From a phage: a stretch of 64,000 nucleotides of DNA. The stretch lies in NCBI GenBank assembly GCA_024875585.1, contig GCA_024875585.1_4107.1; one strand, written 5' to 3'. Under the pieces are notes generated by a model. The model made no database searches and was not told the DNA's origin. It worked only from the letters and a program-made list of their open reading frames with translations. The translations under genes and the position numbers were made by a program. Positions 1,099-13,150 of this stretch are shown here, piece after piece; positions within the stretch are counted from its first letter, which is position 1; every line of letters starts with the position of its first letter.

Positions 1099-1118
1099 AA
1101 AATATTATCACAGTACTA

Positions 1119-1147
1119 TTGACATAGATTGATAGTACTGGCATAAT
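1119..1147 (+). promoter_or_regulatory. sigma70-type promoter, class III (second copy)
   Basis: near-identical to 806-870 module. Confidence 0.6.
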
Positions 1148-1180
1148 AGATTTTATCAAGACAACTAAGAGGAAATTAAA

Positions 1181-1525
1181 ATGGCTAACATCAATACTAT
1201 AGCAGCACAAAATATCAACCTGTCTTCTGTTGAAGTTGTACACATTGCCGCCCGGCGTTGGTTCCAGGCGTCTTATGGTAATACGTATTTCTCTTTAACG
1301 GTAGATGTTGAAATCAATGGCGAATTTATTGAAGTAGTAAACGTGCCGTTCCAATATGGCTACGGGGATCATTTTGACACTGTAGCAATGGAAGAATTAA
1401 GCAAGGTTATTAATATGGAAGGTAAAGAGTTTTTACGCGGTTCTTATCTTTCCCGTTTTTGCCGTGATAATAATATTACTGTTTATAGTTCTGTTAGTGA
1501 TGTTAAACGCAAAAAAGATCTTTAA
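1181..1525 (+). CDS. hypothetical protein (114 aa); paralog of 7222..7545
   Basis: ORF+SD; shares YGYG core and C-terminal VKRKKD with 7222 ORF. Confidence 0.7.
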   Translation: MANINTIAAQNINLSSVEVVHIAARRWFQASYGNTYFSLTVDVEINGEFIEVVNVPFQYGYGDHFDTVAMEELSKVINMEGKEFLRGSYLSRFCRDNNITVYSSVSDVKRKKDL

Positions 1526-1539
1526 TTAGCTTTACTTTA

Positions 1540-1566
1540 TGCAGATACTTTGATACAGTGTCTGCA
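1540..1566 (+). repeat. inverted repeat TGCAGATACTT...CAGTGTCTGCA
   Basis: ~10-bp stem with one wobble; no T-tract, so regulatory/processing site rather than clear terminator. Confidence 0.35.
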
Positions 1567-1605
1567 TAGGGGAAAGAAATTAAATCAACTTAAGAGGATA
1601 GTAAA

Positions 1606-1875
1606 ATGAAAAATATCAGTACTTTAATCGATGCAGGTACACATGTTCGTCGGTCTATGGTTGCAACCAGTTCTACAAAACAAGTAGCGAGCGGTTATCT
1701 TGTATTTGTGCACGATGGTAAACTCCTGGAACGTTCAATCAATTTTGATGTTAAAAACAATTGCCGTTTTATTATCTTTAAGCGTGAGCAATATAAAATT
1801 GATTTACCAGCGAAGCCCATTAGTGGGGCGTACAACGTTCAATCATTGTTTGAGCGTCAACCATACACCTATTAA
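1606..1875 (+). CDS. hypothetical protein (89 aa)
   Basis: ORF with SD AAGAGGATAG. Confidence 0.65.
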   Translation: MKNISTLIDAGTHVRRSMVATSSTKQVASGYLVFVHDGKLLERSINFDVKNNCRFIIFKREQYKIDLPAKPISGAYNVQSLFERQPYTY

Positions 1876-1926
1876 TCAAAACAACGTTAGCGGTCGATTT
1901 AGGCCGCTTATACTGGGGATTATATA

Positions 1927-2199
1927 ATGAATACTAATCAAGTACTGAATGAGATTGAAAGCATCATTAAACCGATGAAGCGTACTGATGCTATGTTAAC
2001 ACCGGAAGAATGCCGCCTTTATGAGCGTTACAGCGTCGAACAAGTCCAGGCAATGGCTATGGCTACCCCAGCCGTTAAACAGCCTGAGAACGCGTTACAG
2101 GACGTTACAGGGGATTATATCATCAATCCAGTACTAGGGAAGATGGAAGCAATCACCGAAGAACAAAAAGACTACTTAAGCCAGTACTTAAAAGGTTAA
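1927..2199 (+). CDS. hypothetical protein (90 aa)
   Basis: ORF; weak SD. Confidence 0.55.
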   Translation: MNTNQVLNEIESIIKPMKRTDAMLTPEECRLYERYSVEQVQAMAMATPAVKQPENALQDVTGDYIINPVLGKMEAITEEQKDYLSQYLKG

Positions 2200-2204
2200 T
2201 TAAT

Positions 2205-2414
2205 ATGCTTACTGTACAGGATAAGATCGACATCTTAAAGGTTAATATGTATGTGATTGATGCAGATCCTGAAAAAGTATTTGCATACGATGATTCTAAT
2301 CGTAGTCCTTTTTATTGTAGTCATGTAGTTGGATATGTGCCGTTATCGTATGTTATCGAAAGAGTGGTTGATTCAGCATACAAACATTTTTTAGAAAATA
2401 GTACTTGCAATTAG
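2205..2414 (+). CDS. hypothetical protein (69 aa)
   Basis: ORF 5 nt after previous stop; SD AAAGG. Confidence 0.55.
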   Translation: MLTVQDKIDILKVNMYVIDADPEKVFAYDDSNRSPFYCSHVVGYVPLSYVIERVVDSAYKHFLENSTCN

Positions 2415-2432
2415 TTTTTAGTACTGTATAAT
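2405..2432 (+). promoter_or_regulatory. sigma70-type promoter, class I
   Basis: TTGCAA / TATAAT; followed by leader hairpin 2446-2464. Confidence 0.6.
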
Positions 2433-2482
2433 GTTTTACATGAAGGGGGGAAATGATTCTCCCCAATAACAGGAGAAACAAA

Positions 2483-2635
2483 ATGAAACAATACAACGCT
2501 CGGTTTGATGTTACTATCGGCAACGGCAAAGGTCAATTCTCTTTCAGTACTCGTAAGAGTTATACAGAAAACTTCTTGCGTAATTGTGCACTGACCGCCG
2601 CACAAATTAAACATTATTTTCAGGCTAAAAAATGA
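2483..2635 (+). CDS. hypothetical protein (50 aa)
   Basis: start moved from track 2453 (ATG inside leader hairpin) to ATG after SD AGGAGAAACA. Confidence 0.6.
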   Translation: MKQYNARFDVTIGNGKGQFSFSTRKSYTENFLRNCALTAAQIKHYFQAKK

Positions 2636-2721
2636 AATCATTAGCTTATTATAGCTCGGCCCTGGTCGGTGCATTGATCGCGGCATTGTTAGTAGCTTAT
2701 CTATTCTTTATGGTGATTTAA
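2632..2721 (+). CDS. small hydrophobic membrane peptide (29 aa)
   Basis: ATGA stop/start overlap; MKSLAYYSSALVGALIAALLVAYLFFMVI. Confidence 0.45.
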   Translation: MKSLAYYSSALVGALIAALLVAYLFFMVI

Positions 2722-2859
2722 ATGAATCCTAACGGTATAATTTACAGTACTCCTAAAACGAAAGCAGATAAAGCGGAAGCACGTAAAGCGAAAGTAAAGG
2801 AGTACATCAAGCAAGGTATGACACGAAAGGCGGCGATTCTAAAAGCTAAAAATAAATGA
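2722..2859 (+). CDS. small basic protein (45 aa)
   Basis: ATG one nt after previous stop; Lys/Ala-rich. Confidence 0.45.
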   Translation: MNPNGIIYSTPKTKADKAEARKAKVKEYIKQGMTRKAAILKAKNK

Positions 2860-2955
2860 AAAAAAGTGGTTGACTTCGGTCAGCCATTTTGCTATTATAT
2901 ATTCATTGAGAGATAGCTCACTAGCCCACAGGGTGCGGGAGTGTATCTATTATAT
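2860..2955 (+). repeat. repeated intergenic element copy 1 (terminator hairpin + embedded TTGACT-N17-TATTAT + conserved tail)
   Basis: ~95-bp sequence repeated at 6270, 9275, 11565; hairpin GGTTGAC-TTCG-GTCAGCC then T-run. Confidence 0.65.
2867..2890 (+). terminator. rho-independent terminator
   Basis: stem GGTTGAC/GTCAGCC, TTCG loop, ATTTTG tail. Confidence 0.6.
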
Positions 2956-3002
2956 AAGTATTGAGTACTGAAAACTATTTTAAAAGTACATGTAGAAAGT
3001 AC

Positions 3003-3030
3003 TTGTAAACTATGTTTAAAGGCGTATAAT
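3003..3030 (+). promoter_or_regulatory. sigma70-type promoter, class I
   Basis: TTGTAA / TATAAT; leader hairpin GGGAAACGGTTTCCC follows. Confidence 0.55.
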
Positions 3031-3082
3031 GTTTTACATCGAGAGCGGGAAACGGTTTCCCCTAGTAATAAGGAATAAAATC

Positions 3083-3424
3083 ATGACTATTGCAATTGTA
3101 CAATCTAACTTTGAAAACGAAATCATCGCCCAAGCACTGCGTTTAAATGATGGTCGGGCCGAAATTAATTACGGTTTCAATTCAGGCGGTTGTGAAAAAT
3201 ATCAGTACTTTATAACTGCTGATGGCGGTGTCCTGGGTATTAATACAGTTATTGTAAACATTCAGAAAATTAATTTCAATGATCCAGACGATAGCCAGTT
3301 TTACATTGTAGGCGTAGACGTGAACTATGAGGATGACTCACTAACTGATGATTACACTGGCGAGAAGTTAGAAAGTGCATACGGTGAAGATGATTATCAG
3401 TCAGTACCGGAAGATTTTGAATAA
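3083..3424 (+). CDS. hypothetical acidic protein (113 aa)
   Basis: start moved from track 3029 to ATG after SD AAGGAATAAAATC. Confidence 0.65.
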   Translation: MTIAIVQSNFENEIIAQALRLNDGRAEINYGFNSGGCEKYQYFITADGGVLGINTVIVNIQKINFNDPDDSQFYIVGVDVNYEDDSLTDDYTGEKLESAYGEDDYQSVPEDFE

Positions 3425-3438
3425 TATTAAAAAATAGT

Positions 3439-3466
3439 TTGACAATAGATTATAGTACTGTATAAT
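3439..3466 (+). promoter_or_regulatory. sigma70-type promoter (TTGACA-N16-TATAAT)
   Basis: TTGACA 3439-3444, TATAAT 3461-3466. Confidence 0.6.
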
Positions 3467-3485
3467 AGTTTACATCAAGGGCGAC

Positions 3486-3528
3486 GGGAAGTTTTAAAAA
3501 CTTCCCTATAGGGAGAATAGTTCTCCCC
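3486..3528 (+). promoter_or_regulatory. tandem 5' leader hairpins (GGGAAGTTT-TAAAA-AACTTCCC and GGGAGAA-TAG-TTCTCCC)
   Basis: two perfect inverted repeats in leader; same pair at 5580-5623 and 9763-9804. Confidence 0.6.
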
Positions 3529-3548
3529 ACTAACAGAGAGAAAACAAA

Positions 3549-3761
3549 ATGGCTAATATCTGCACTGTACTGAAAAATGCAAAACAAGTTTTATTTTCTG
3601 ATCACGATCATTTAAACAAGGATATTACTGGCGTTCGGAATATCAAAGATGTAAAACGTGTTATGGGTATCTATTGCAATATGAAACGTGTCGGCACGTT
3701 CGGTAATAAATTTCTATACCAGGCGGGGGATTACAATTTTACACTGACTATCATTAACTAA
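3549..3761 (+). CDS. hypothetical protein (70 aa)
   Basis: ORF+SD after structured leader. Confidence 0.7.
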   Translation: MANICTVLKNAKQVLFSDHDHLNKDITGVRNIKDVKRVMGIYCNMKRVGTFGNKFLYQAGDYNFTLTIIN

Positions 3762-3780
3762 AAATATTATCACAGTACTA

Positions 3781-3809
3781 TTGACATAGATTGATAGTAC
3801 TGGCATAAT
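3781..3809 (+). promoter_or_regulatory. sigma70-type promoter, class III (third copy)
   Basis: TTGACA 3781-3786, CATAAT 3804-3809. Confidence 0.6.
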
Positions 3810-3840
3810 AGATTTTATTAAAACAACTGAGGAAATTAAA

Positions 3841-4020
3841 ATGGCTATCATCGCAAAAACTGAAATCATCGGCCTGGATTCTATCATCATGACGTTTGAA
3901 GATCAAAAAGGTATGTATGTAGTTTCCTATGGTGATTATGTTCGGGAGTATGAAACGGTAGACGAAGCCTTTGAAAGTTACATTCGCCAGGTGAATAAAG
4001 CATACGACGATTACCGCTAA
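3841..4020 (+). CDS. hypothetical protein (59 aa); paralog of 886..1098
   Basis: ATG after SD GAGGAAATTAAA; below track cutoff. Confidence 0.6.
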   Translation: MAIIAKTEIIGLDSIIMTFEDQKGMYVVSYGDYVREYETVDEAFESYIRQVNKAYDDYR

Positions 4021-4047
4021 AATATATTACCAGTACTATCAAAGCTA

Positions 4048-4075
4048 TTGACAACGTTTGATAGTACTGTATAAT
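4048..4075 (+). promoter_or_regulatory. sigma70-type promoter (TTGACA-N16-TATAAT)
   Basis: TTGACA 4048-4053, TATAAT 4070-4075. Confidence 0.55.
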
Positions 4076-4121
4076 AAGTTTTATCAACTGTAGTTAACTT
4101 AACAAAAGAGAGAGAAACAAA

Positions 4122-4265
4122 ATGATCGCACTGGATTCATTCATCGATGCAGTTCTGGCAAAAACTGGCGAGGATCTGACCGCAGAACAATACGCAATGA
4201 TCGAGCAATGCCAGCAAGACGGTAAATCGGTGAAAGATACTGTTAAGATTATCCGCAAGATGTAA
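4122..4265 (+). CDS. hypothetical small acidic protein (47 aa)
   Basis: ATG after SD AAGAGAGAGA; below cutoff; hairpin follows. Confidence 0.55.
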   Translation: MIALDSFIDAVLAKTGEDLTAEQYAMIEQCQQDGKSVKDTVKIIRKM

Positions 4266-4371
4266 GATTATAAGCCCATTAGTTAACGCTGGTGGGCTTT
4301 AATCATTTACCCTATACAATGCCAGTACTAAACCGTTTATCTCGTTAGAATGCATTACAGGACGTTTGACA

Positions 4372-4569
4372 ATGATTAGCATGAAATCAGTACAAAAACA
4401 AATAGAAACATTATCAAAAATTAAACGTAAACAGTACTCATTAGAATATAATATCAATGGTAACTATCATCTAATGAAAGAGAATAATTTTATCGTCATT
4501 GATGAATCATTGCAAATTATTAGTATAGTACTGAAAGCATTAATTAATGATAGAAAAAGGTTAAAATAA
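4372..4569 (+). CDS. hypothetical protein (65 aa)
   Basis: track ORF starts at TTG 4366; first ATG used; start uncertain. Confidence 0.4.
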   Translation: MISMKSVQKQIETLSKIKRKQYSLEYNINGNYHLMKENNFIVIDESLQIISIVLKALINDRKRLK

Positions 4570-4826
4570 TGGCAGTAGGATTCGCGAAAGATGGAGCCGA
4601 GCAAGATGAGATTAACGCAGTTATTCAAGCCGCCGTTAACCACGCTAGAAAGCAAATTAACGCACAAATAGAATCACTGATACATTGCCTCGACTGCGGC
4701 GATAAAATCCCTGAGAATCGCCGACAGGCTGTTAAGGGATGTAAGTACTGCATAACCTGCCAGGAAGATCATGATAGTACTTTTAAAAGAGATCCGCGTA
4801 ATTGTTGGCATAGATCTATGAGATAA
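4569..4826 (+). CDS. DksA/TraR-family C4 zinc-finger protein
   Basis: CLDCGDKIPENRRQAV-x5-CITCQ, the CxxC-x17-CxxC spacing of TraR/DksA proteins. Confidence 0.65.
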   Translation: MAVGFAKDGAEQDEINAVIQAAVNHARKQINAQIESLIHCLDCGDKIPENRRQAVKGCKYCITCQEDHDSTFKRDPRNCWHRSMR

Positions 4827-4833
4827 AAAGTAA

Positions 4834-4861
4834 TTGACAGTACTGAAAGATAGTGTATAAT
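4834..4861 (+). promoter_or_regulatory. sigma70-type promoter
   Basis: TTGACA 4834-4839, TATAAT 4856-4861. Confidence 0.55.
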
Positions 4862-4890
4862 GTTTTATATCTTAACTGAGGATAGAAATC

Positions 4891-5247
4891 ATGGGAATAC
4901 AACATATCACGCGGACCACTGACAATGGCGAGATCACTGGTTATCAAGTACAGGGCAAAGTAGCACAATTGCAGTACTGGTTTGTTAAACGTGGAATCAT
5001 TGCACCGGATCTTGATTATGACCGTGTAGCGTTTATTGATTCTCTTTATGTTGATCCTGATAGTCGGGGCAATGGTGAAGGTAACGAATTAATGAATGCC
5101 TTTATTGATGCTGCCGATGATTCAGATTGTATCATTTTAGAATGCGATACGGGAGAAGATAACGCCTTCAATCTTAAAGAATGGTACGAAGGTTTCGGAT
5201 TCGAAGTACTGATCGATAGTGAATATCCTATCATGATTTTATCATAG
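4891..5247 (+). CDS. GNAT-family N-acetyltransferase (putative)
   Basis: FIDSLYVDPDSRGNGEGNELMNAFID resembles GNAT motif A (acetyl-CoA binding loop). Confidence 0.5.
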   Translation: MGIQHITRTTDNGEITGYQVQGKVAQLQYWFVKRGIIAPDLDYDRVAFIDSLYVDPDSRGNGEGNELMNAFIDAADDSDCIILECDTGEDNAFNLKEWYEGFGFEVLIDSEYPIMILS

Positions 5248-5261
5248 TACTAAAAAAGTAA

Positions 5262-5289
5262 TTGACAGTACTATCAGATAGTGTATAAT
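5262..5289 (+). promoter_or_regulatory. sigma70-type promoter
   Basis: TTGACA / TATAAT; leader hairpin GGGGAAACATCTTCCCC 5302-5318. Confidence 0.55.
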
Positions 5290-5330
5290 GTTTTACATAG
5301 AGGGGAAACATCTTCCCCTACTAAGAGGAA

Positions 5331-5525
5331 ATGAAAATGGAAAAATTATCAAGTATTTTAGTACAAGATGATTTTGGTAATCCTGGAAGTGCTATCATTG
5401 TTCGGGGTAATAAAGCAACGTTTGTTATTGCTGGTGGACCTGTACAGCGTAGCATTAAAAACAATGCTGTTACTATTAATAATGTACGCTATCGCTTAGA
5501 TAAAGAATTGATTCATAAACTTTAA
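5331..5525 (+). CDS. hypothetical protein (64 aa)
   Basis: ORF+SD TAAGAGG. Confidence 0.65.
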   Translation: MKMEKLSSILVQDDFGNPGSAIIVRGNKATFVIAGGPVQRSIKNNAVTINNVRYRLDKELIHKL

Positions 5526-5532
5526 AAAGTAC

Positions 5533-5560
5533 TTGCAATTAGTTTTTAGTACTGTATAAT
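5533..5560 (+). promoter_or_regulatory. sigma70-type promoter, class I
   Basis: TTGCAA / TATAAT; two leader hairpins 5580-5623. Confidence 0.6.
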
Positions 5561-5640
5561 AGTTTACATGAAAGGCAACGGGAAGTTTAAAAACTTCCCT
5601 AAAGGGGGAAATGATTCTCCCCACTAAGAGGAAAGAAAAA

Positions 5641-5853
5641 ATGCAAGGTCAACTAATCGTTCGTAAATGGTCTGATACTAATGAAAAACCGTGGGATGTA
5701 CAATACATCGGACCGGATGGGGTATCACGTTATCAGCCAGGCGTAACGCATAGTACTGAGCAATATGCCGCCGCTCATCGTGAACGCCTGTTAGAATCTA
5801 TGCAACAGGGTTTAGGTGAAAAATTCATTCAAGATCATTGGCTGAAAGATTAA
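5641..5853 (+). CDS. hypothetical protein (70 aa)
   Basis: start moved from 5611 (inside hairpin) to ATG after SD AAGAGGAAAG. Confidence 0.65.
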   Translation: MQGQLIVRKWSDTNEKPWDVQYIGPDGVSRYQPGVTHSTEQYAAAHRERLLESMQQGLGEKFIQDHWLKD

Positions 5854-5860
5854 AAAGTAC

Positions 5861-5888
5861 TTGTGTAGTATAGAAAATAAAGTATAAT
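5861..5888 (+). promoter_or_regulatory. sigma70-type promoter, class I
   Basis: TTGTGT / TATAAT; leader hairpin 5902-5918. Confidence 0.55.
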
Positions 5889-5939
5889 GTTTAATACAGG
5901 AAGGGGAATAGTTCCCCTCCTAACAAAAAGGAAAGTAAC

Positions 5940-6113
5940 ATGATTCATGTAGAATTGTCAGTACTGAGAGATTTGTTTTATCGGATGGGTACTACTGGCG
6001 AATATCCGAAGGGTGATACTGCAAAACTTTTTGTATCTCTCGACTTATGGCAACGCGAACAATTAGTAATGTCGTGGCGTAAAGGTAAAGCAGATCGCGA
6101 GGTGAAAGCATGA
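5940..6113 (+). CDS. hypothetical protein (57 aa)
   Basis: ATG after SD AAAAGGAAAG; below cutoff. Confidence 0.5.
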   Translation: MIHVELSVLRDLFYRMGTTGEYPKGDTAKLFVSLDLWQREQLVMSWRKGKADREVKA

Positions 6114-6259
6114 AAGAATTTTTATTCGAAGTAGTTTTTATTGGTGTAAGTAGTCACCAATTGATTCGCTCAAGTGGTTATAATGTTTGCCAGGCATGGA
6201 ATAACATTAAACAAATGTACCCGAACGCTATCACATATCGCAACCCAAAACAAGTTTAA
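6110..6259 (+). CDS. hypothetical protein (49 aa)
   Basis: ATGA overlap with previous ORF; below cutoff. Confidence 0.4.
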   Translation: MKEFLFEVVFIGVSSHQLIRSSGYNVCQAWNNIKQMYPNAITYRNPKQV

Positions 6260-6269
6260 AAATAATTAA

Positions 6270-6362
6270 AAAAAGGATTGACTTCGGTCAGTCCTTTTTG
6301 CTATTATATATTCATTGAGAGATAGCTCACTGACCCATAGGGTGCGGAAGTGTATCTATTAT
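6270..6362 (+). repeat. repeated intergenic element copy 2
   Basis: hairpin GGATTGAC-TTCG-GTCAGTCC carries a compensatory pair change relative to copy 1. Confidence 0.65.
6274..6299 (+). terminator. rho-independent terminator
   Basis: stem + TTTTTG. Confidence 0.6.
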
Positions 6363-6412
6363 ATGCTGGTGGGTGTATTATCTAGTACTGAAAACTATTT
6401 GATAAAAAGTAC

Positions 6413-6440
6413 TTGCATTGTACTTAGAATCAAGTATAAT
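6413..6440 (+). promoter_or_regulatory. sigma70-type promoter, class I, with no ORF downstream
   Basis: TTGCAT / TATAAT; followed by ~80 nt without ORF before the next promoter. Confidence 0.5.
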
Positions 6441-6446
6441 GTTTTA

Positions 6447-6525
6447 CATCAGGACGGGGAACGAAATAAGTAAATCCCTGTTAAGTAGCCCAGGAGTAAG
6501 GCATACGAAAAACTCCCCTGATAAA
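6447..6525 (+). ncRNA. candidate small RNA or leader-only transcript
   Basis: promoter-driven ORF-free segment with GGGGA...TCCCC pairing potential. Confidence 0.25.
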
Positions 6526-6530
6526 ATAGT

Positions 6531-6559
6531 TTGACAATAATTTTAAGTACTGATAAAAT
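6531..6559 (+). promoter_or_regulatory. sigma70-type promoter, class II (second copy)
   Basis: TTGACA 6531-6536, A/T-rich -10. Confidence 0.5.
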
Positions 6560-6591
6560 AATCACATCAACTACTGATAAGGAAACATAAA

Positions 6592-6867
6592 ATGCGGGTT
6601 CTTCTGACAGCTAACGAAATCGAGCAAGTACTTACTACTAACCTGGAACAATGGAAACGTGAAGCAGATATCCAGGCGGTTCAATTGTTAAATGAGAAGT
6701 TAACGCCGGATGATTTAAGTAAGATTGTAGATCCTCAATTCTACGAAGATATTCACGACACCGCGTTAAGCGTCGAGGATGTACTAGATAAGCACTACAT
6801 TGATACTAATTTACAGGGTTACGGTCGTAAAAATTTTATTACTATTCACGACATTTACAATAATTAA
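6592..6867 (+). CDS. hypothetical protein (91 aa)
   Basis: ORF+SD TAAGGAAACA. Confidence 0.7.
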   Translation: MRVLLTANEIEQVLTTNLEQWKREADIQAVQLLNEKLTPDDLSKIVDPQFYEDIHDTALSVEDVLDKHYIDTNLQGYGRKNFITIHDIYNN

Positions 6868-6870
6868 GTA

Positions 6871-6898
6871 TTGACAAAGTATCTTAGTACTGTATAAT
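6871..6898 (+). promoter_or_regulatory. sigma70-type promoter, class IV (GTATTGACAAAGTATCTTAGTACTGTATAAT)
   Basis: TTGACA / TATAAT; leader hairpin 6913-6931. Confidence 0.6.
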
Positions 6899-6952
6899 AG
6901 TTTACATCAAGTGAGGGGAATGGTTCCCCTCCTAACAAAGAGAGAAATAAAA

Positions 6953-7135
6953 ATGGCTAAGTGCACTATCTGTAAGAAAGAAATCGTATTAGTTCCAAGT
7001 GCCCGTGAGCGTGCCGCTCGGTTCGGTGGCAAAGCGTCAGACTATACAAAAATGTTTACTACTCATGCAAATTGCCAGGTAGCAAAACGTTCACAAGAAA
7101 GCGTAGAATTAATGCGTAAACTTTCCAAAAAATAA
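6953..7135 (+). CDS. small Cys-containing protein (60 aa), possible zinc-binding
   Basis: start moved from 6911; MAKCTICKK...HANCQ. Confidence 0.6.
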   Translation: MAKCTICKKEIVLVPSARERAARFGGKASDYTKMFTTHANCQVAKRSQESVELMRKLSKK

Positions 7136-7138
7136 GTA

Positions 7139-7166
7139 TTGACAAAGTATCTTAGTACTGTATAAT
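7139..7166 (+). promoter_or_regulatory. sigma70-type promoter, class IV (second copy)
   Basis: near-identical to 6868-6900; leader hairpin 7181-7200. Confidence 0.6.
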
Positions 7167-7221
7167 AGTTTACATCAAGTGAGGGGAAACGGTTCCCCTC
7201 CTAACAAAGAGAGAAATAAAA

Positions 7222-7545
7222 ATGACTATGATCCTTGCCCAGAAAGTAGAACTGAAAATTGTAACTTCCTTTGACATTAAAGTTAATCGCTGGACTGATC
7301 GGAACGGTAATACTTACCACTCTTGCTACGTGTCTGCATTGATTGGTGATCGTTGGGAAGACTTGGGACACGAAACCTTTACATACGGTTATGGTACGCA
7401 AGGCGAATACACTGGTTTGGAGATCATTAAAGAAACCGTTATAGGTTTCAACCCGAAAGAAAAAGTTATTCACCGCATCGAAAAAGAGATTAACAAAGAA
7501 ATAACAGTTCGCTACTACGATGTAAAACGTAAGAAAGACATGTAA
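7222..7545 (+). CDS. hypothetical protein (107 aa); paralog of 1181..1525
   Basis: ORF+SD; FTYGYG and C-terminal VKRKKD shared. Confidence 0.7.
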   Translation: MTMILAQKVELKIVTSFDIKVNRWTDRNGNTYHSCYVSALIGDRWEDLGHETFTYGYGTQGEYTGLEIIKETVIGFNPKEKVIHRIEKEINKEITVRYYDVKRKKDM

Positions 7546-7567
7546 TAGAATCCATTTAAAGTACTAT

Positions 7568-7596
7568 TTGACATTACACAGATAGTACTTTATAAT
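7568..7596 (+). promoter_or_regulatory. sigma70-type promoter
   Basis: TTGACA-N17-TATAAT. Confidence 0.55.
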
Positions 7597-7640
7597 AGAC
7601 TCTAACTTGTAGTACTAACTTAACTAATAGGATGTATACC

Positions 7641-8036
7641 ATGATTACTAAATTCTACGCTACCCGTGAAGCTGCCCGTATTGTTGCACGCGAGGAAGGA
7701 GCGGCATTTAAAGACATGGGCAAAGATGCACCGAAAGGCCAACGCTGGAGCGTACAGTTCAAAGAAATCTCTGATATTGTGAATTCACCTGAACCAGTAC
7801 TGACAGCAGCAGAACAGAAGAAAGCTGATGAACTGGCGGCAATTCTTAACGCTCAAGATGAATTCGTCGAGGGTGCTGATATCCAGGTTGTAGTAAATTC
7901 GAATGCATGGACTCACGCGGATCATCTGGCTAACCTGAAGCGTCCAAGCGTACTGATTCGCAACCAGAAAGAGATCCGTCATGACCGTAAGGGTAATCGT
8001 GTAACAGTATACAGTAAACGCCGCCAGGTTATCTAA
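7641..8036 (+). CDS. hypothetical protein (131 aa), GC-richer than neighbours
   Basis: ORF; start ATG 7641 or 7632; host-like codon usage by eye. Confidence 0.6.
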   Translation: MITKFYATREAARIVAREEGAAFKDMGKDAPKGQRWSVQFKEISDIVNSPEPVLTAAEQKKADELAAILNAQDEFVEGADIQVVVNSNAWTHADHLANLKRPSVLIRNQKEIRHDRKGNRVTVYSKRRQVI

Positions 8037-8058
8037 TAACTTGCAGTTCTAACAACAC

Positions 8059-8083
8059 GGCGGGATCTGTTCCCGCCTTTTTT
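8059..8083 (+). terminator. rho-independent terminator
   Basis: GGCGGGA-TCTGT-TCCCGCC then TTTTTT. Confidence 0.75.
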
Positions 8084-8098
8084 ACAGGATAAACTAAA

Positions 8099-8353
8099 AT
8101 GATTAAGGTAAAACTATCTAAAGATAATATCTTGCGGGTACACTATAAAGCCCCTCAGAGAATCATCACAAAGGCCGTACAGCTTGCGAATGAGTTTATT
8201 AATGGTAATCTATTACCTAGGAAGTTAAGCAACGGAAAACTGCGTGTAATCGATGTAGACACTAACAACAGAATAGTAATAGAGAATACCGGAAAGATAA
8301 ACCTATATGAACACCAACAATATAATAAGAAAATAAAACTAATTAGTCGTTGA
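8099..8353 (+). CDS. hypothetical protein (84 aa)
   Basis: ORF+SD AGGATAAACTAAA. Confidence 0.65.
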   Translation: MIKVKLSKDNILRVHYKAPQRIITKAVQLANEFINGNLLPRKLSNGKLRVIDVDTNNRIVIENTGKINLYEHQQYNKKIKLISR

Positions 8354-8378
8354 CAGTACTCAAATGTTTTAGTACTAT
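8350..8378 (+). promoter_or_regulatory. sigma70-type promoter (TTGACAGTACTCAAAT...TACTAT)
   Basis: TTGACA-N17-TACTAT. Confidence 0.5.
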
Positions 8379-8407
8379 ATATCTATACCAACACGGAGAG
8401 AAACAAA

Positions 8408-8626
8408 ATGAAATTATCTAAAATCGAAAAGAAAACTATTGACGTAGCTATCCAACATGGTTACACATTTCGTAATGATTTACATTTTACCAATTTTCAA
8501 CAAGGGTATCGTACTATTAAAAAACTAATTGACAAAGGTTTATTAGTTAAAGTAGACAACGGCAACGGCGTTGAATATCAACCAACACAGGACGCATTTA
8601 ATTTTAAGAAATATAATATTATCTAA
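8408..8626 (+). CDS. hypothetical protein (72 aa)
   Basis: ORF+SD CGGAGAGAAACA. Confidence 0.65.
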   Translation: MKLSKIEKKTIDVAIQHGYTFRNDLHFTNFQQGYRTIKKLIDKGLLVKVDNGNGVEYQPTQDAFNFKKYNII

Positions 8627-8655
8627 TTGACAGTACTCAAATATTTTAGTACTAT
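8627..8655 (+). promoter_or_regulatory. sigma70-type promoter (copy of 8350 module)
   Basis: TTGACAGTACTCAAAT...TACTAT. Confidence 0.5.
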
Positions 8656-8682
8656 ATCTATACCAACACAGGAAAAAACAAA

Positions 8683-9267
8683 ATGCGTAATTATACTAAA
8701 TTCATCCGTACACTGTCAGAAATGGAAACCAACAAAGAGATCTTGACAGCTTGTCGGTTAGCTGGTCTGGAGATCATCGGTGCGGGGTCTTCCCGTATTG
8801 TATTCGCTTTAAATGATCGGTTAGTGATTAAGGTCGCGAATTGTGATGCAGGTGTAGAACAAAATGAAACAGAATGTAAAGTATGGAATTTTTTAGATTA
8901 TGACCGCCCTCAGTTGAAACAGTTCTTTGCTAAAGTACATATGCATTTAAGCGATCCTGATAATATGTTTATTGTTATGGATCGGTTGAGTACTGCAAGT
9001 AAAGGCAGTGTAAAGCACGTTAATGCGTGCAACGAATTAAAGTACAATATTAAACGTAATGCCATTGAACGCCAACACCGCTTTGCTGATGCACTACAAC
9101 ACGTAGATGATACATTATCAACACTAACGATTAGAGATATCAGAAAACAGAATATCGGCCAGGATCGAAATGGACTGATTAAAGTACTTGATTATGGTTT
9201 AACCCGCAATATCTGGAATCAGTACTATAAAAAGCGTGATGTAGCAGCAAGTAAGGTAACACGATAA
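8683..9267 (+). CDS. putative protein kinase-like protein (194 aa)
   Basis: IGAGSSRIVF...VIKVA (Gly-loop + Lys), RDIRKQNIG (catalytic-loop-like), LDYGL (DFG-like); from memory, unverified. Confidence 0.4.
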   Translation: MRNYTKFIRTLSEMETNKEILTACRLAGLEIIGAGSSRIVFALNDRLVIKVANCDAGVEQNETECKVWNFLDYDRPQLKQFFAKVHMHLSDPDNMFIVMDRLSTASKGSVKHVNACNELKYNIKRNAIERQHRFADALQHVDDTLSTLTIRDIRKQNIGQDRNGLIKVLDYGLTRNIWNQYYKKRDVAASKVTR

Positions 9268-9274
9268 AAAAGAT

Positions 9275-9372
9275 TAAAAAAGGGATTGACTCCGGTCAGT
9301 CCCTTTGCTATTATATATTCATTGAGAGATAACTCACTGACCCATAGGGTGCGGGAGTGTATCTATTATATA
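9275..9372 (+). repeat. repeated intergenic element copy 3
   Basis: hairpin GGGATTGAC-TCCG-GTCAGTCCC + conserved tail. Confidence 0.65.
9282..9307 (+). terminator. rho-independent terminator
   Basis: stem + TTTG. Confidence 0.55.
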
Positions 9373-9407
9373 AGTATTGAGTACTGAAAACTATTTTTAA
9401 AAAGTAC

Positions 9408-9435
9408 TTGCAATGTACTTAGAATCAAGTATAAT
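9408..9435 (+). promoter_or_regulatory. sigma70-type promoter, class I
   Basis: TTGCAA / TATAAT; leader hairpin 9450-9468. Confidence 0.6.
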
Positions 9436-9489
9436 GTTTTATATCGAGAGGGGGAAATGGTTCTCCCCAATACAATAAGGAATAAAATC

Positions 9490-9711
9490 ATGACTACAAT
9501 GACTTGCATTTACGCTTCCAATCTTCTGAATGATGCGGCCTTTAATGTTGATTCAGAATATCAATGTTATCGGGATGAAAATAAAAAAGTTTTTGTAGTT
9601 GATAATAATGGTTTCCATATTGAATTGCAATCCGGCTTCACTGGCGTTGATGGTAAATCAGTATGGGGCGTACAGGATGATAAAGGTACATATCATTTTA
9701 AACGTAATTAA
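9490..9711 (+). CDS. hypothetical protein (73 aa)
   Basis: start moved from 9457 to ATG after SD TAAGGAATAAAATC. Confidence 0.65.
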   Translation: MTTMTCIYASNLLNDAAFNVDSEYQCYRDENKKVFVVDNNGFHIELQSGFTGVDGKSVWGVQDDKGTYHFKRN

Positions 9712-9714
9712 GTA

Positions 9715-9742
9715 TTGACAAAGTATCTTAGTACTGTATAAT
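9715..9742 (+). promoter_or_regulatory. sigma70-type promoter, class IV
   Basis: TTGACA / TATAAT; two leader hairpins 9763-9804. Confidence 0.6.
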
Positions 9743-9826
9743 AGTTTACATCAAGGGCAACGGGAAGTTTTTAAAACTTCCCTATAGGGAGAATAGATCT
9801 CCCCGATACTAAAAGGAAACAAAAAT

Positions 9827-10099
9827 ATGTCTAGCTACTCCGCTACTATGATCATTAAAGATATGAACGGTAATCCTACTGCTGCTGGTGGATCATTTGG
9901 AAACATTAACTTAGATGGTCGGTTAACCATGCAATCAGCCATCAATGCAGCGAAAGAAGTTTTTAAGAATGAATGCACTGTAAGTAAGCTGGATTATATG
10001 GGATTCGCTATCGAGAAAACTAATCGTTTTGTGAACTACAAAAATCCACTGATGATTGATACCAACCTGAAAGCTAACGAAGTGGAATACTTATTATGA
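9827..10099 (+). CDS. hypothetical protein (90 aa)
   Basis: ORF+SD AAAAGGAAACA. Confidence 0.7.
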   Translation: MSSYSATMIIKDMNGNPTAAGGSFGNINLDGRLTMQSAINAAKEVFKNECTVSKLDYMGFAIEKTNRFVNYKNPLMIDTNLKANEVEYLL

Positions 10100-10287
10100 C
10101 AGTTGAAGAAGTTAAAAAAGTACTGGCAGTTCTACGCTATCATAATCATTGCAAGGTGAAGAATGATCCTGATTATCTTGATTCATCCCTTGAGGAAGAC
10201 ACATTAAACGCAATAAGCTATATGCAAACATTATTAAAACGTATGACCGAAAAGAATAGACCGGACTATATCGGAAATAAAATTTAA
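10096..10287 (+). CDS. hypothetical protein (63 aa)
   Basis: ATGA overlap with upstream gene. Confidence 0.55.
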   Translation: MTVEEVKKVLAVLRYHNHCKVKNDPDYLDSSLEEDTLNAISYMQTLLKRMTEKNRPDYIGNKI

Positions 10288-10294
10288 AAAGTAC

Positions 10295-10322
10295 TTGCAT
10301 TGTAGTTAGATTAACGTATAAT
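10295..10322 (+). promoter_or_regulatory. sigma70-type promoter, class I
   Basis: TTGCAT / TATAAT; leader hairpin 10337-10353. Confidence 0.6.
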
Positions 10323-10373
10323 GTTTTATATCGAGAGGGGAAATGGTTTCCCCTCAAGTCCAGGAGATACACA

Positions 10374-10637
10374 ATGAACACTATCGAAATCACTATCAAT
10401 GCTCACGTATACGACAACGTAGTACTGCAAACTACTATGACCGCTAATGATACCAGAACTTTGCGGAATACTGTTATAAGTGCCGTATGTGCTGCAATTG
10501 GTGATGTATCCCTGGAAAATGCAGAACATATCAACAACGGTTTCACTATGTGCAAACGTGATAACGCAAAACATATCATCGTAGAAGGTTACGGCGGTGT
10601 AGAATATAATCTTTATATGAAAAAAGTACTTGCATAG
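10374..10637 (+). CDS. hypothetical protein (87 aa)
   Basis: ORF+SD CAGGAGATACACA. Confidence 0.7.
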   Translation: MNTIEITINAHVYDNVVLQTTMTANDTRTLRNTVISAVCAAIGDVSLENAEHINNGFTMCKRDNAKHIIVEGYGGVEYNLYMKKVLA

Positions 10638-10657
10638 TAACTAAAACAAAGTATAAT
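10629..10657 (+). promoter_or_regulatory. sigma70-type promoter, class I (overlaps 3' end of previous CDS)
   Basis: TTGCAT / TATAAT; leader hairpin GGGGGAG-ATATC-CTCCCCC. Confidence 0.55.
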
Positions 10658-10704
10658 GTTTTGCATAGGGGGAGATATCCTCCCCCACTAAAAGGAGTAC
10701 TAAA

Positions 10705-10929
10705 ATGGCTAACTTTGATGAACTGATGCGGGAAGTAGCTACCCTGGCAGAAGAGAAGAAATCATTTGATTCTATCTATAACACCTCTTACCGTGATTCA
10801 GTACTGGCATGTAACCAGGATCAAAAAGATGAACTAATCGCCACCTATCATGAAGCGTGGAAGTATTACCGCCAATGGGAGAAAGAAGAAAGTGAGTCTA
10901 CCATTGACGGCCTCAATAATCTAATCTAA
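10705..10929 (+). CDS. hypothetical acidic protein (74 aa)
   Basis: ORF+SD AAAAGGAGTAC. Confidence 0.7.
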   Translation: MANFDELMREVATLAEEKKSFDSIYNTSYRDSVLACNQDQKDELIATYHEAWKYYRQWEKEESESTIDGLNNLI

Positions 10930-10947
10930 AGTTTTATTTCAGTACTA

Positions 10948-10976
10948 TTGACATAGATTGATAGTACTGATATGAT
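10948..10976 (+). promoter_or_regulatory. sigma70-type promoter, class III variant
   Basis: TTGACATAGATTGATAGTACTGA-TATGAT. Confidence 0.55.
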
Positions 10977-11004
10977 AACTTTACTAACTACAAGGGGAAA
11001 CATC

Positions 11005-11262
11005 ATGGAACAATTCACACAATATCGGGTAAATCCTCAAGCTATGGCATACGTAGAAGACCATAAAACGTTACCAGTACAAACACCAATTAAAGGCCAT
11101 ATCTATCGTGCAATGTCATGGAATCCGGCCCAGGATGGCTATAAAACCGTAGCCGTGGGTATGTACTGCGGTAATGGTGAATGGTTTGATCCTAACAATC
11201 CGATTGCACTTGATAGTACTGAAAAAATGAAATGGGCCGACTACATCGAAGATATTTCATAA
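11005..11262 (+). CDS. hypothetical protein (85 aa)
   Basis: start moved from 10972 to ATG after SD CAAGGGGAAACATC. Confidence 0.6.
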   Translation: MEQFTQYRVNPQAMAYVEDHKTLPVQTPIKGHIYRAMSWNPAQDGYKTVAVGMYCGNGEWFDPNNPIALDSTEKMKWADYIEDIS

Positions 11263-11268
11263 AAATTA

Positions 11269-11297
11269 TTTGACAGTACTAACCAGTAATGTATAAT
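11269..11297 (+). promoter_or_regulatory. sigma70-type promoter
   Basis: TTGACA-N17-TATAAT; leader hairpin with covarying GCGGGGG/CTCCCGC. Confidence 0.6.
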
Positions 11298-11352
11298 GTT
11301 TTACATAGAGCGGGGGAATAGTTCTCCCGCCAATAGTTTGGAGTAAAACATT

Positions 11353-11553
11353 ATGTCTATCGCTATCGCCCTGGTCGAAGTACTGAAAGAAGCTAAAGCC
11401 AACCTTATCGATGTACAGATTAAGGAATTGCAAAATGGCTTAATCGGCTGTACTTGTACCGCTGGTGGCCCGTCAGACTATCGGGAATTCGAATCACTTG
11501 AATCGATGGTCCGTTATCTTACAATCATCGTAGAAGATTGGAGAATCATCTAA
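11353..11553 (+). CDS. hypothetical protein (66 aa)
   Basis: ORF+SD TTTGGAGTAAAACATT. Confidence 0.65.
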   Translation: MSIAIALVEVLKEAKANLIDVQIKELQNGLIGCTCTAGGPSDYREFESLESMVRYLTIIVEDWRII

Positions 11554-11564
11554 CAAAAAAAAAG

Positions 11565-11660
11565 AATAAAAAGGGATTGACTCCGGTCAGTCCCTTTGCT
11601 ATTATATACGCATAGACAAAAACTAGCCCACAGGGTGCATAGGTGTATCTAAAATATATA
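11565..11660 (+). repeat. repeated intergenic element copy 4 (diverged tail)
   Basis: same hairpin as copy 3; downstream half partly diverged. Confidence 0.55.
11573..11598 (+). terminator. rho-independent terminator
   Basis: GGGATTGAC-TCCG-GTCAGTCCC + TTTG. Confidence 0.55.
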
Positions 11661-11716
11661 GTTAATAACGGTGAGTAACCATCTGCTGGTGGAGTGAAAA
11701 CTATTAATAAAAAGTA

Positions 11717-11746
11717 TTGACAAAGTATATCAGTACTGCAATAATG
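11717..11746 (+). promoter_or_regulatory. sigma70-type promoter
   Basis: TTGACA, AGTACTG, A/T-rich -10. Confidence 0.45.
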
Positions 11747-11799
11747 TATCTCGTAGGGCGGCAATGGTGCGACGGCCCACAAAGTTAGGAGATACACAA

Positions 11800-12132
11800 A
11801 TGAGTACTTCAATCGCTATCGTTAAAGCTTTCATCCGTACCAACGTTTCATCTGTATTCATTGACGGATTGGATCGGGAAGTAGAATACTCAATCATTAT
11901 CGCACAAACGGCAAACGGTGCTCGGTACATCCTTAATGATAGTGAAGCAAATCACTACTACTTCACTAAAGCCACTGGCTTTAAACGCATCGATGCTGAT
12001 GTAGTATACGCTAAGATGAATAAGCTGGTAGATAAGATTAACACTAAAGGTACTATCGATTTACAGTACTGGACCGAAACCGATCCAGAATATGGATCTC
12101 ACCGCTACCTGAATCCAGGTATTAAAATGTAA
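11800..12132 (+). CDS. hypothetical protein (110 aa)
   Basis: start moved from 11764 to ATG after SD TTAGGAGATACACAA. Confidence 0.65.
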   Translation: MSTSIAIVKAFIRTNVSSVFIDGLDREVEYSIIIAQTANGARYILNDSEANHYYFTKATGFKRIDADVVYAKMNKLVDKINTKGTIDLQYWTETDPEYGSHRYLNPGIKM

Positions 12133-12138
12133 AAAGTA

Positions 12139-12167
12139 CTTGTGTAGCACTTAGATTTAAGTATAAT
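12139..12167 (+). promoter_or_regulatory. sigma70-type promoter, class I
   Basis: TTGTGT / TATAAT; leader hairpin 12182-12200. Confidence 0.6.
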
Positions 12168-12221
12168 GTTTTTCATAGAGAGGGGGAAATGGTTCTCCCT
12201 CATAAATTAAGGAGTTTTATC

Positions 12222-12623
12222 ATGACCTTCTCAATCACTTCCTTCGCTGACGTTTTAGTACTGGCTCGGACTTTTGGCAAAGCTGGCCTTGAGCACGCTG
12301 TAAGTAATGGTTATATGCACCCGGAATATTGCCGCATTATCGGTAGCTGCAAACGTTGGGCCGTGTCCCGTAATATTGAGATTGAAAACTTCAATGATGG
12401 TAACAACGAATATACAGTTGATGCAGTATTCGAATCCGTTGATCTCGGCGGTATCTATAACACTAACCTGAATGATGTGCGTATCGTTCGCACGGGGTTC
12501 GGTGCTTATGATGTATCTATCCGTGAAGCGATGGACAAGGGATACATTAGCAAGGATCAGTTAGCTTACATTATGCAGCAGACTAAAGAGCGTAATGAAG
12601 CACGCACTATCTTAGGTCTGTAA
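12222..12623 (+). CDS. hypothetical protein (133 aa)
   Basis: start moved from 12189 to ATG after SD TAAGGAGTTTTATC. Confidence 0.65.
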   Translation: MTFSITSFADVLVLARTFGKAGLEHAVSNGYMHPEYCRIIGSCKRWAVSRNIEIENFNDGNNEYTVDAVFESVDLGGIYNTNLNDVRIVRTGFGAYDVSIREAMDKGYISKDQLAYIMQQTKERNEARTILGL

Positions 12624-12648
12624 GCATTACACATCACTAAACATCATA

Positions 12649-12666
12649 GGCCGCTCTCTAGCGGCC
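12649..12666 (+). repeat. palindrome GGCCGCT-CTCT-AGCGGCC
   Basis: perfect 7-bp inverted repeat, GC-rich, no T-tract. Confidence 0.35.
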
Positions 12667-12691
12667 TTAACTATATCAGGAGTACATACAC

Positions 12692-12901
12692 ATGATCTAT
12701 ACAGTATACAGCGTTCTAGGCACTATTGCAGGTGTACACGATAACGTCGATGATACTATGAGTACAGTACTGCAACAGGTTCCACTAAAGCCTAAGACAG
12801 TTAAGAAGATGACCGCACGACTAACCAGGGCGACGGCTGGCGTGGAAGTATGGCAGGACTACGGGGATACACAGGTAATCGTAAGCGTAACGAGGGATTA
12901 A
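12692..12901 (+). CDS. hypothetical protein (69 aa)
   Basis: ORF+SD CAGGAGTACATACAC. Confidence 0.6.
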   Translation: MIYTVYSVLGTIAGVHDNVDDTMSTVLQQVPLKPKTVKKMTARLTRATAGVEVWQDYGDTQVIVSVTRD

Positions 12902-12929
12902 TACGTAAAATGATTTAGTACTGATTCAG

Positions 12930-12995
12930 AAAAAAGTCAAGGCGTTTTTAAAATTATGCGTTAAAAAAATGCATAGGTAATCCCTTGACTTTTTT
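12930..12995 (+). repeat. large inverted repeat AAAAAAGTCAAGG...CCTTGACTTTTTT
   Basis: 13-nt arms ~40 nt apart enclosing smaller palindromes; sits between early module and Family A array. Confidence 0.5.
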
Positions 12996-13150
12996 GAAAT
13001 AAAAGGGATTGGACTATGGCAAAATGCGTAGGGGGGCTAAAGTGCGGGTAACTTAGCGGCTTCGATAAAGGGGTATTACGAATAAAATGTTATTGACTTT
13101 TTATATAAATCGTATAAAATATGATTGATAATAATTTTAAGGGAGTCCCT

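Follow-up and report, generated by a model that had tools for sequence, protein, structure and literature searches.

Introduction

In T4-like phages, cassettes consisting of a sigma-70 promoter and a terminator stem-loop, known as PeSL cassettes, are repeated among the ORFan early genes and serve as recombination points (Arbiol et al. 2010, PMC2839356; Comeau et al. 2014, PMC4122927). Non-coding RNAs have been reported from the long terminal repeat of the Pseudomonas jumbo phage PA5oct, where the single-copy ncRNA001 and ncRNA002 (236 and 451 nt) were found by RNA-seq to be highly transcribed (PMC7318152). In this study, a repeated intergenic element was analyzed in a 64-kb stretch of phage DNA (contig GCA_024875585.1_4107.1, here called the window, to which all coordinates refer unless another locus is named). 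The element occurs four times on the plus strand and consists of two separable modules, a predicted terminator with a promoter embedded in its hairpin and a putative RNA motif of about 50 nt. As far as these searches show, the RNA module represents an undescribed RNA family, present only in Rak2-like giant phages.

By megablast, the window was assigned to the Asteriusvirus group, coliphages of about 350 kb including PBECO4, 121Q, G17, phAPEC6 and others, with 88–96% identity. Members of the Rak2-like jumbo group (Asteriusvirus, Alcyoneusvirus, Mimasvirus, Eneladusvirus and related phages) are now being isolated with therapy in view. Most gene products predicted for them lack an assigned function, 83% in the case of phAPEC6 (PMC7247149), and no published account of the Rak2-like early programme beyond predicted promoters was found in the literature.

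Four copies of a two-part intergenic element

The element was located at 2860–2960, 6269–6368, 9276–9376 and 11567–11665 by sequence reads and alignment, and the stop codon of a small ORF directly precedes each copy. This confirmed the initial annotation of the stretch, which had noted the same element at 2860, 6270, 9275 and 11565, each time after a gene. The core motifs CCCAYAGGGTGC and TTGACTYCGGTCAG both occur four times in the window, against 0.05 and 0.28 expected occurrences respectively, and chance is excluded for both. A fifth copy was not found in the window with either motif or with the covariance model described below. The tail consensus that had been proposed fits copies 1 to 3, but not copy 4, a divergent short variant with a 5-nt deletion which lacks the first hairpin of the tail and reads GCATAGGTG and TCTAAAATAT.

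The repeat, described before as a single element of about 95 bp, is real, but it comprises two independent modules, and sequence conservation among the copies goes on for roughly another 100 bp and reaches a second, ordinary early promoter downstream. For copy 1, this promoter is at 3003–3030 (+), outside the RNA motif, and would drive the gene at 3083–3424; equivalent plus-strand promoters were found by alignment and promoter scan at 6413–6440, 9408–9435 and 11717–11745 for copies 2, 3 and 4. The modules are considered separable because, in relatives, terminator-promoters were found without the RNA motif and the RNA motif was found behind ordinary promoters. In the window both modules are always joined (four out of four copies).

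The terminator and its embedded promoter

The first module has a stem of 12–13 bp, a UNCG loop and a U-run, together with TTGACT, a spacer of 17–18 nt and TG-n-TATTAT. The loops read TTCG or TCCG (cUNCGg). Hairpin and U-run pass the terminator scan, a prediction made from sequence only, and these cassettes make up four of the five to six credible plus-strand terminators in positions 1–14000. Folding of the 101-nt element gave z-scores of −3.8 (2860–2960) and −5.0. The copy 1 terminator (2863–2890, 12 bp, cUUCGg loop, U-run) would end the transcription unit of the ORF at 2722–2859. The other three, also on the plus strand, were predicted at 6270–6299 (13 bp, UUCG), 9279–9306 (12 bp, UCCG) and 11570–11597 (12 bp, UCCG), following the ORFs at 6110–6259, 8683–9267 and 11353–11553. 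The paired compensatory substitutions first noticed in this hairpin were found again: GGTTGAC/GTCAGCC in copy 1 corresponds to GATTGAC/GTCAGTC in copies 2–4, replacing a G-C by an A-U pair, and a second compensatory change, from U-A to G-C, lies lower in the stem.

In copy 1 the embedded sigma-70 promoter was predicted at 2870–2898 (+), with TTGACT at 2870–2875, a 17-nt spacer and TG-n-TATTAT at 2893–2898; the predicted start near A2905 agrees with the promoter-core distance found throughout the family. The corresponding plus-strand promoters of copies 2, 3 and 4 are at 6278–6307, 9286–9314 and 11577–11605. The spacing of 17 nt given earlier holds for copies 1, 3 and 4 but not for copy 2, where it is 18 nt. 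TG precedes the −10 box of all four copies, forming an extended −10, and the hexamers score 10/12 in the promoter scan.

That the terminator doubles as a promoter, as had been suggested, is supported by the terminator scan, the hexamer scores, the extended −10 and the recurrence of the arrangement in relatives. The same design was found with many different stems, the TTGAC always in the 5′ arm, in phages of Klebsiella, Pectobacterium, Salmonella, Serratia and Erwinia. Relatives also contain terminators with TTGAC in the 5′ arm and a −10 box which lack the tail and run straight into a ribosome-binding site, the plain PeSL layout. As a natural part of about 40 bp predicted to insulate and restart transcription, the module could serve synthetic biology.

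Structure of the putative RNA motif

The second module consists, from its 5′ end, of hairpin 1, a 3-nt linker, hairpin 2 (RCCC, 3–4 nt, GGGU), GC, a purine-rich stretch of 6 nt and a YRYCY tail. A covariance model, R1, was built from 16 geometrically uniform copies. In copy 1 the motif (2904–2952, +; 62.5 bits, E = 2.6e-18) comprises hairpin 1 at 2907–2920 (UGAG-AGAUAG-CUCA), hairpin 2 at 2924–2934 (GCCC-ACA-GGGU), GC, the purine stretch at 2937–2942 and the tail GUAUCU at 2943–2948, in agreement with the pair counts. Copy 2 (6313–6361, +; 64.1 bits) has hairpin 1 at 6316–6329, hairpin 2 at 6333–6343 and the tail at 6352–6357, and copy 3 (9320–9368, +; 63.6 bits) has them at 9323–9336, 9340–9350 and 9359–9364. 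Copy 4 (11611–11654, +; 39.1 bits, E = 4.4e-10) belongs to a short subtype with no clear hairpin 1, with hairpin 2 at 11626–11636 and the tail at 11645–11650; this subtype is also found in K64-1, RaK2, 7t3, Hallingskeid and vB_Ec-M-J. Hairpin 1 starts 2–3 nt after the predicted transcription start.

A conserved secondary structure was looked for in the tail and was found for hairpin 1. In the R1 alignment, both-sided changes occur at all four pairs of helix 1 and 94% of the cells are paired, with 113 double-change cells against 39 ± 4 after shuffling, while slid controls reach at most 59% pairing. A model-independent scan gave 29 distinct hairpin 1 stems of at least 4 bp, such stems being present in 61% of the copies versus 26% after shuffling. 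A few purine-rich classes account for the loops (GCGAAA, GAGAAA, AGAUAA, AGAACAA and GGACACAA).

The RCCC/GGGU stem of hairpin 2 is paired in 98.7% and near invariant, apart from one CCU/AGG double change and an alternation of A-U and G-U at the closing pair; both the length and the sequence of its loop vary. Either helix makes free use of G-U pairs. The tail varies only as YRYCY, through transitions which maintain pairing with GGGUG via G-U and U-G. This alternative helix, GGGUG:YRYCY, is 96% compatible over five pairs (31–66% in slid controls), with one-sided changes only. It is mutually exclusive with hairpin 2 and has a median probability of 0.01, compared with 0.71 for hairpin 2, so that it would be a possible second state, thermodynamically a minor one.

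Other structures and resemblances were tried. A long hairpin joining the hairpin 1 loop and the tail, which is the lowest-energy fold of window copies 1–3, was rejected as a family feature, being paired in 67% versus 64% after shuffling family-wide. Mutual information in a right-anchored alignment, in which the signal is dominated by neighbouring columns and subfamilies, revealed no long-range pairs beyond hairpin 1. Resemblances to the 3′ end of 16S rRNA, the RfaH ops site and the RegA/RegB sites each fit only a subset of the copies and were dropped.

Distribution in Rak2-like phages

Relatives were searched initially with a hidden Markov model (HMM) made from the four copies, followed by a regular-expression scan. 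The tail was detected on both strands in Klebsiella phages K64-1 and RaK2, Pectobacterium phage CBB, Salmonella phage 7t3, Serratia phage BF, Erwinia phage Hallingskeid and E. coli phage vB_Ec-M-J. This search of other phage genomes, extended with R1, yielded 80 matches in 305 kb of Rak2-like sequence (the window and seven relative loci), four of them in the window. Each terminal repeat contains at least ten copies. All lie within the terminal-repeat region of about 20 kb and none in the flanking 15–50 kb of the genomes sampled. Hairpin 1 subtypes are common to different genera.

In the relatives, the region corresponding to the window copies lies in a direct terminal repeat of about 21 kb, where the early genes are located. 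The equivalent of copy 1 in vB_Ec-M-J is at 10.4 kb, within the annotated direct terminal repeat of 21,525 bp, and the CBB copies are held in its repeat of 22,456 bp; the repeat of fEgEco12, confirmed by restriction, measures 20,993 bp (PMC13070987). From the offset in the relatives, the window would start about 7.5 kb into the repeat, with the end of the repeat near window position 13,000–14,000, the place where the dense early-promoter array also stops.

A 21-base pattern, CCCACAGGGTGC-N5-TGTATCTAT, had no match in 185,579 bacterial and archaeal genomes and in IMG/VR matched only contigs of 345–378 kb. R1 also picked up one IMG/VR fragment of 109 kb. A looser 14-base pattern gave mostly chance matches in IMG/VR, which were sorted with the covariance model. 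When 5,426 E. coli genomes were searched by BLAST, the core found no match, in a database whose size leaves little sensitivity for short matches. No Rfam 15 family matched the window at the gathering threshold, and at E ≤ 10 only spurious sub-threshold matches appeared (patAB leader, 23.5 versus 92 bits; MicX, 20 versus 75 bits). Nothing like the motif is described in the literature found on the sequence, on RaK2, GAP32 and CBB, on phAPEC6 or on fEgEco12.

The motif is coupled to promoters at a fixed distance. Many copies in the relatives have an ordinary upstream promoter which is not within a hairpin, and in 77 of the 80 matches the −10 box ends 21–29 nt upstream of the core, whatever the strand or promoter type. 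The sigma-70 promoter score is at least 9/12 in 74 matches (versus 14% of random windows) and 50 have an extended −10. With respect to these predicted promoters, 79 of the 80 are oriented so that the sense strand would be transcribed. This spacing on either strand, together with the compensatory changes in hairpin 1, supports the view already put forward that the conserved tail would be the transcript. The motif is the most conserved non-coding sequence in the terminal-repeat loci examined and stands behind some of the best sigma-70 promoters there.

Three contexts were distinguished. In context A, plus-strand copies, including all four in the window, are followed 37–79 nt on by another promoter with no terminator between. 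In context B, on the minus strand, AGTACT comes after the copy at about +21 and an intrinsic terminator at +34 to +40; an ORF is absent, and the copies form stand-alone units of about 100 nt with their own promoter (L001 14316–14365 and 21697–21745, L004 16653–16696 and L003 8257–8306, where L numbers denote the relative loci). In context C, convergent pairs are located in the non-coding left end of the repeat, with cores 68–70, 79–81 or 87 bp apart.

The fixed spacings of these pairs bear on a DNA-level role, in which CCCAYAGGGTGC...GTATCT would be a site beside promoters bound by a phage or host DNA-binding protein and the hairpin a cruciform or single-strand DNA; an early-promoter regulator, an R-loop or origin element and a DNA-entry pause site are examples. 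The core does not covary but stays invariant, the motif occurs solely in the terminal repeat, and in some pairs a Fur-box-like palindrome lies between the copies, all of which would suit such a site. A symmetric DNA site would not need the orientation to the promoter that is fixed in 79/80 copies, and this fixed polarity and spacing make a duplex-DNA site hard to reconcile with the data. The covariation of hairpin 1 moreover uses G-U pairs, which form in RNA and not in duplex DNA, and the only changes in the tail are transitions that keep the GGGUG pairing via G-U and U-G. A DNA site was judged very unlikely.

Also considered were a small RNA on the minus strand, terminated by the hairpin, and a miniature transposable element bordered by direct repeats of CTATTATATA. 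Copies 1–3 do have a minus-strand TATAAT (at about 2952–2957 in copy 1) and CTATTATATA on both sides of the core, but both features are confined to the Asteriusvirus copies; the relatives have TATCTATAGTTTA and similar sequences, without a minus-strand −10 or flanking repeat, and the conserved promoter is always on the sense strand. Both readings, including that of a target-site duplication, are extremely improbable and were rejected.

The genes flanking the cassettes are unrelated ORFans, for which reason a tie of the motif to one gene family was rejected. One clear module replacement was seen: window copy 2 and the vB_Ec-M-J copy at 14068 have near identical flanks and RNA modules of different subtype. 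The alternatives offered in the initial annotation, a small RNA family or a mobile cassette, hence both turned out to be partly right, the first through the stand-alone minus-strand units of the relatives and the second through this exchange. Its interpretation was essentially right but too narrow.

The exchange between identical flanks, the ORFan neighbours and the hairpin 2–3 nt from the 5′ end, the classic position of a stabiliser, would all be expected if the whole element were only a regulatory and recombination cassette of the PeSL type, its tail being a generic 5′ stabiliser or processing site of the read-through mRNA, kept by gene conversion between the copies rather than by a specific function of the RNA. 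The PeSL of T4-like phages are likewise composites of about 100 bp among ORFan early genes and mediate shuffling (PMC2839356, PMC4122927). Terminator-promoters nevertheless occur without the tail, and there is no mRNA for the stand-alone minus-strand copies to stabilise. Across genera which, according to the authors of CBB, share only 33–38% of their proteins (PMC5259590), the 12-mer CCCAYAGGGTGC and the YRYCY tail stay constant, and hairpin 1 subtypes are shared across genera; gene conversion within a genome cannot account for conservation between genera. This explanation on its own is regarded as quite unlikely.

Proposed function

The following model is favoured. The UNCG-capped hairpin with its U-run would end the upstream early transcription unit, and the same DNA would provide a near-consensus promoter for host sigma-70, with the −35 TTGACT in the 5′ arm and loop and the extended −10 TGnTATTAT just past the U-run. 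Host RNA polymerase would re-initiate about 15 nt downstream of the hairpin, at predicted starts near 2905, 6314, 9321 and 11612 (7 nt after TATTAT), so that the new transcript begins 2–3 nt before the structured RNA of about 50 nt, which would be the selected product. Its hairpin 1 stem appears free to vary yet always pairs and carries a purine-rich, GNR(N)A-like loop. The RNA would be made within minutes of DNA entry from at least ten genes per repeat, or at least 20 per packaged genome counting both repeats. It would act as a product, most plausibly using its invariant CCC/GGGUGC core to bind and titrate a protein of the host or the phage, with the 5′ hairpin protecting the RNA from 5′-end-dependent decay. 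At the window copies, a read-through transcript would carry the RNA as its 5′ part, which would be either freed by cleavage in the AU-rich spacer or kept as a leader.

We give this reading, an abundant early small RNA acting as a product, probably protein-binding through its invariant core and protected at the 5′ end by hairpin 1, a probability of about one half. A product is preferred over a cis-acting leader since the copies in contexts B and C have no downstream mRNA. That the motif is transcribed, where the RNA ends, that it acts in trans and that it has a protein target are all inferred from the sequence patterns described here. If transcribed, it would likely be among the most abundant RNAs of early infection and a clean handle on host takeover.

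Several observations weigh against the RNA product. At the four window copies no terminator intervenes ahead of the following promoter; the combination of own promoter, no ORF and own intrinsic terminator that marks a stand-alone small-RNA gene is not found there. The equilibrium fold of copies 1–3 favours one long irregular hairpin over hairpin 1. Helix 2 is so nearly invariant that covariation neither proves nor disproves it, and the invariant 12-mer might just as well be a stretch of DNA to which a protein binds. No complementary target motif is enriched in the window.

The position of the motif, always promoter-proximal, and its two adjacent hairpins recall a cis-acting leader for processive antitermination of the lambda nut or HK022 put type. 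The fresh RNA would remain bound to the polymerase, either unaided or together with a factor from the phage that recognises the GNR(N)A-like hairpin 1 loop; downstream early terminators would be read through, and the embedded promoters would give a second, longer class of transcripts. The motif directly follows four of the five to six plus-strand terminators in the early part of the window, which would be sensible if only re-initiated polymerases resist terminators. The loops GCGAA-A, GAGAA-A, A-GAACA-A and GCGUA-A fit the GNR(N)A pentaloop of boxB; AGAUAA/AGAUAG and GGACACAA give no clean fit and the short subtype has no hairpin. Evidence of other kinds argues against antitermination. No boxA (CGCUCUUUA-like) sequence is conserved beside the hairpin in the alignment of 77 distinct copies. 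In the 64-kb window of this genome of about 350 kb, the only ORF with an arginine-rich segment is a spurious one of 35 aa, and an N-like protein was not found there. Minus-strand copies meet a terminator about 40 nt on with no genes downstream, convergent pairs occupy the non-coding left end of the repeat, and every early gene already has its own promoter. An antitermination leader is considered unlikely.

The reading of an RNA product can be extended, though only tentatively and with considerable doubt. The RNA might be a multicopy early riboregulator encoded at least 20 times in each packaged genome, whose 5′ hairpin varies while its scaffold is constant and bistable, CCC and YRYCY competing for GGGUG. 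Within minutes of infection it would capture or reprogram a central host machine (RNA polymerase, a ribonuclease, a defence sensor or the ribosome), and all Rak2-like jumbo phages would share it as a host-takeover device made of RNA.

Other features of the early region

More than 25 near-consensus sigma-70 promoters (AAAAAGTACTTGCA/TTGACA ... GTATAATGTTTTACAT) form a dense array in window positions 1–13100. Each is followed by a 5′-UTR (untranslated region) hairpin, GGGGGAAATGGTTCTCCCC, a ribosome-binding site and a small ORF, for example at 2396–2463, 9399–9466 and 10286–10353 (repeat families D1–D6, D11 and D17). Promoter and 5′-UTR hairpin together constitute a second family of repeated regulatory cassettes. 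From 13100 to 19600 the window contains tandem paralogous genes with common repeats such as GGAACTAACTATCAAG and TGGGTGCATTCTTGGGAACAGACTATCAGG (families D7, D13, D15, D16 and D18), a block which begins at about the position assigned to the end of the terminal repeat. The search for tRNA and tmRNA genes returned none. Just upstream of copy 3, the ORF at 8683–9267 (+) encodes an early protein of 194 aa with weak, sub-threshold Pfam protein kinase matches (E = 0.0013, 18.6 bits versus a cut-off of 31.7). It recalls early phage kinases such as T7 gp0.7 and is an unproven candidate only.

Chi sites (GCTGGTGG) occur eight times in the window against 0.3 expected, at 4288, 5430, 6365, 9884, 11461, 11685 and 59011 on the plus strand and at 50365 on the minus strand. 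The early region contains a cluster of six, all of them plus-strand; the site at 6365–6372 directly follows copy 2 and that at 11685–11692 lies in the spacer downstream of copy 4. A polar excess of Chi was also seen in the terminal-repeat regions of all seven relatives, with 6–14 plus-strand sites each, including some in the promoter spacers of minus-strand units. In vB_Ec-M-J a back-to-back pair is located about 590 bp from the left end. The pattern suggests RecBCD protection and recombination of the linear ends.

AGTACT was counted 200 times in the whole window versus 17 expected (e.g. at 2964, 2998, 6384, 6408, 9380 and 9403). Within promoter spacers, directly before the −10 box, it often takes the form of the palindrome CAGTACTG; it also occurs as AGTACTTGCA/AGTACTTGAC at the −35 and about 21–29 nt after the RNA core. 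Possible roles are those of a promoter-context motif or a regulator binding site. A further palindrome, GAGAATGATAATCATTT, close to the E. coli Fur box, lies between convergent RNA-motif pairs in relatives (L001 at about 11350–11375; L004 at about 5810–5840 and 12085–12110; L006 at about 2605–2640 and 3150–3175; L005 at about 1025–1055); no such site was found beside the four window copies. At the left end of vB_Ec-M-J (L007 1–1750), the first 1.7 kb or so of the repeat is non-coding and dense in the short direct repeats GGCTAGATGG and GGACGGCTAAACGG. It holds three copies of the RNA motif, one single and two as a convergent pair, together with the double Chi, and could be a terminus, entry or replication control region.

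Comparison with known systems

Hairpin 1 resembles the 5′ stabiliser hairpins of mRNAs from bacteria and phages, such as that of the ompA leader, in lying 2–3 nt from the predicted 5′ end and in having a free stem sequence. Such hairpins leave the invariant second domain and the stand-alone copies unexplained. With the nut sites of lambda and the put sites of HK022 the motif has in common a short promoter-proximal RNA of one or two hairpins. The two stem-loops of HK022 put bind the zinc domain of the beta′ subunit of RNA polymerase and act in cis without a protein. The present motif differs from lambda nut in having no boxA, in its copy number of at least ten versus two and in the many copies without downstream genes.

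The non-coding RNAs of PA5oct are comparable in that they come from the terminal repeat of a phage distantly related to the Rak2-like group. They were rejected as homologues, the best R1 score being 7.7 bits, and stand as an analogy only.

The closest likeness is to the PeSL cassettes. In both, a terminator stem-loop is combined with a strong sigma-70-like early promoter in a composite of about 100 bp between small ORFan early genes. The copies here may likewise recombine, one module swap having been seen (copy 2 versus vB_Ec-M-J 14068). At the window copies the early promoter is near consensus and the predicted terminator stem-loop overlaps its −35. The stem-loop here thus contains the −35, whereas PeSL stems are usually located between −35 and −10 or over the −10. 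The window cassettes are followed in all four cases by the RNA motif of about 50 nt and a second promoter, not by a Shine-Dalgarno sequence and start codon. They also belong to Rak2-like jumbo phages, where they are confined to the direct terminal repeat. The terminator/promoter half of the element is a variant of the PeSL kind, and the idea of self-contained regulatory cassettes is thereby extended beyond the T4-like phages.

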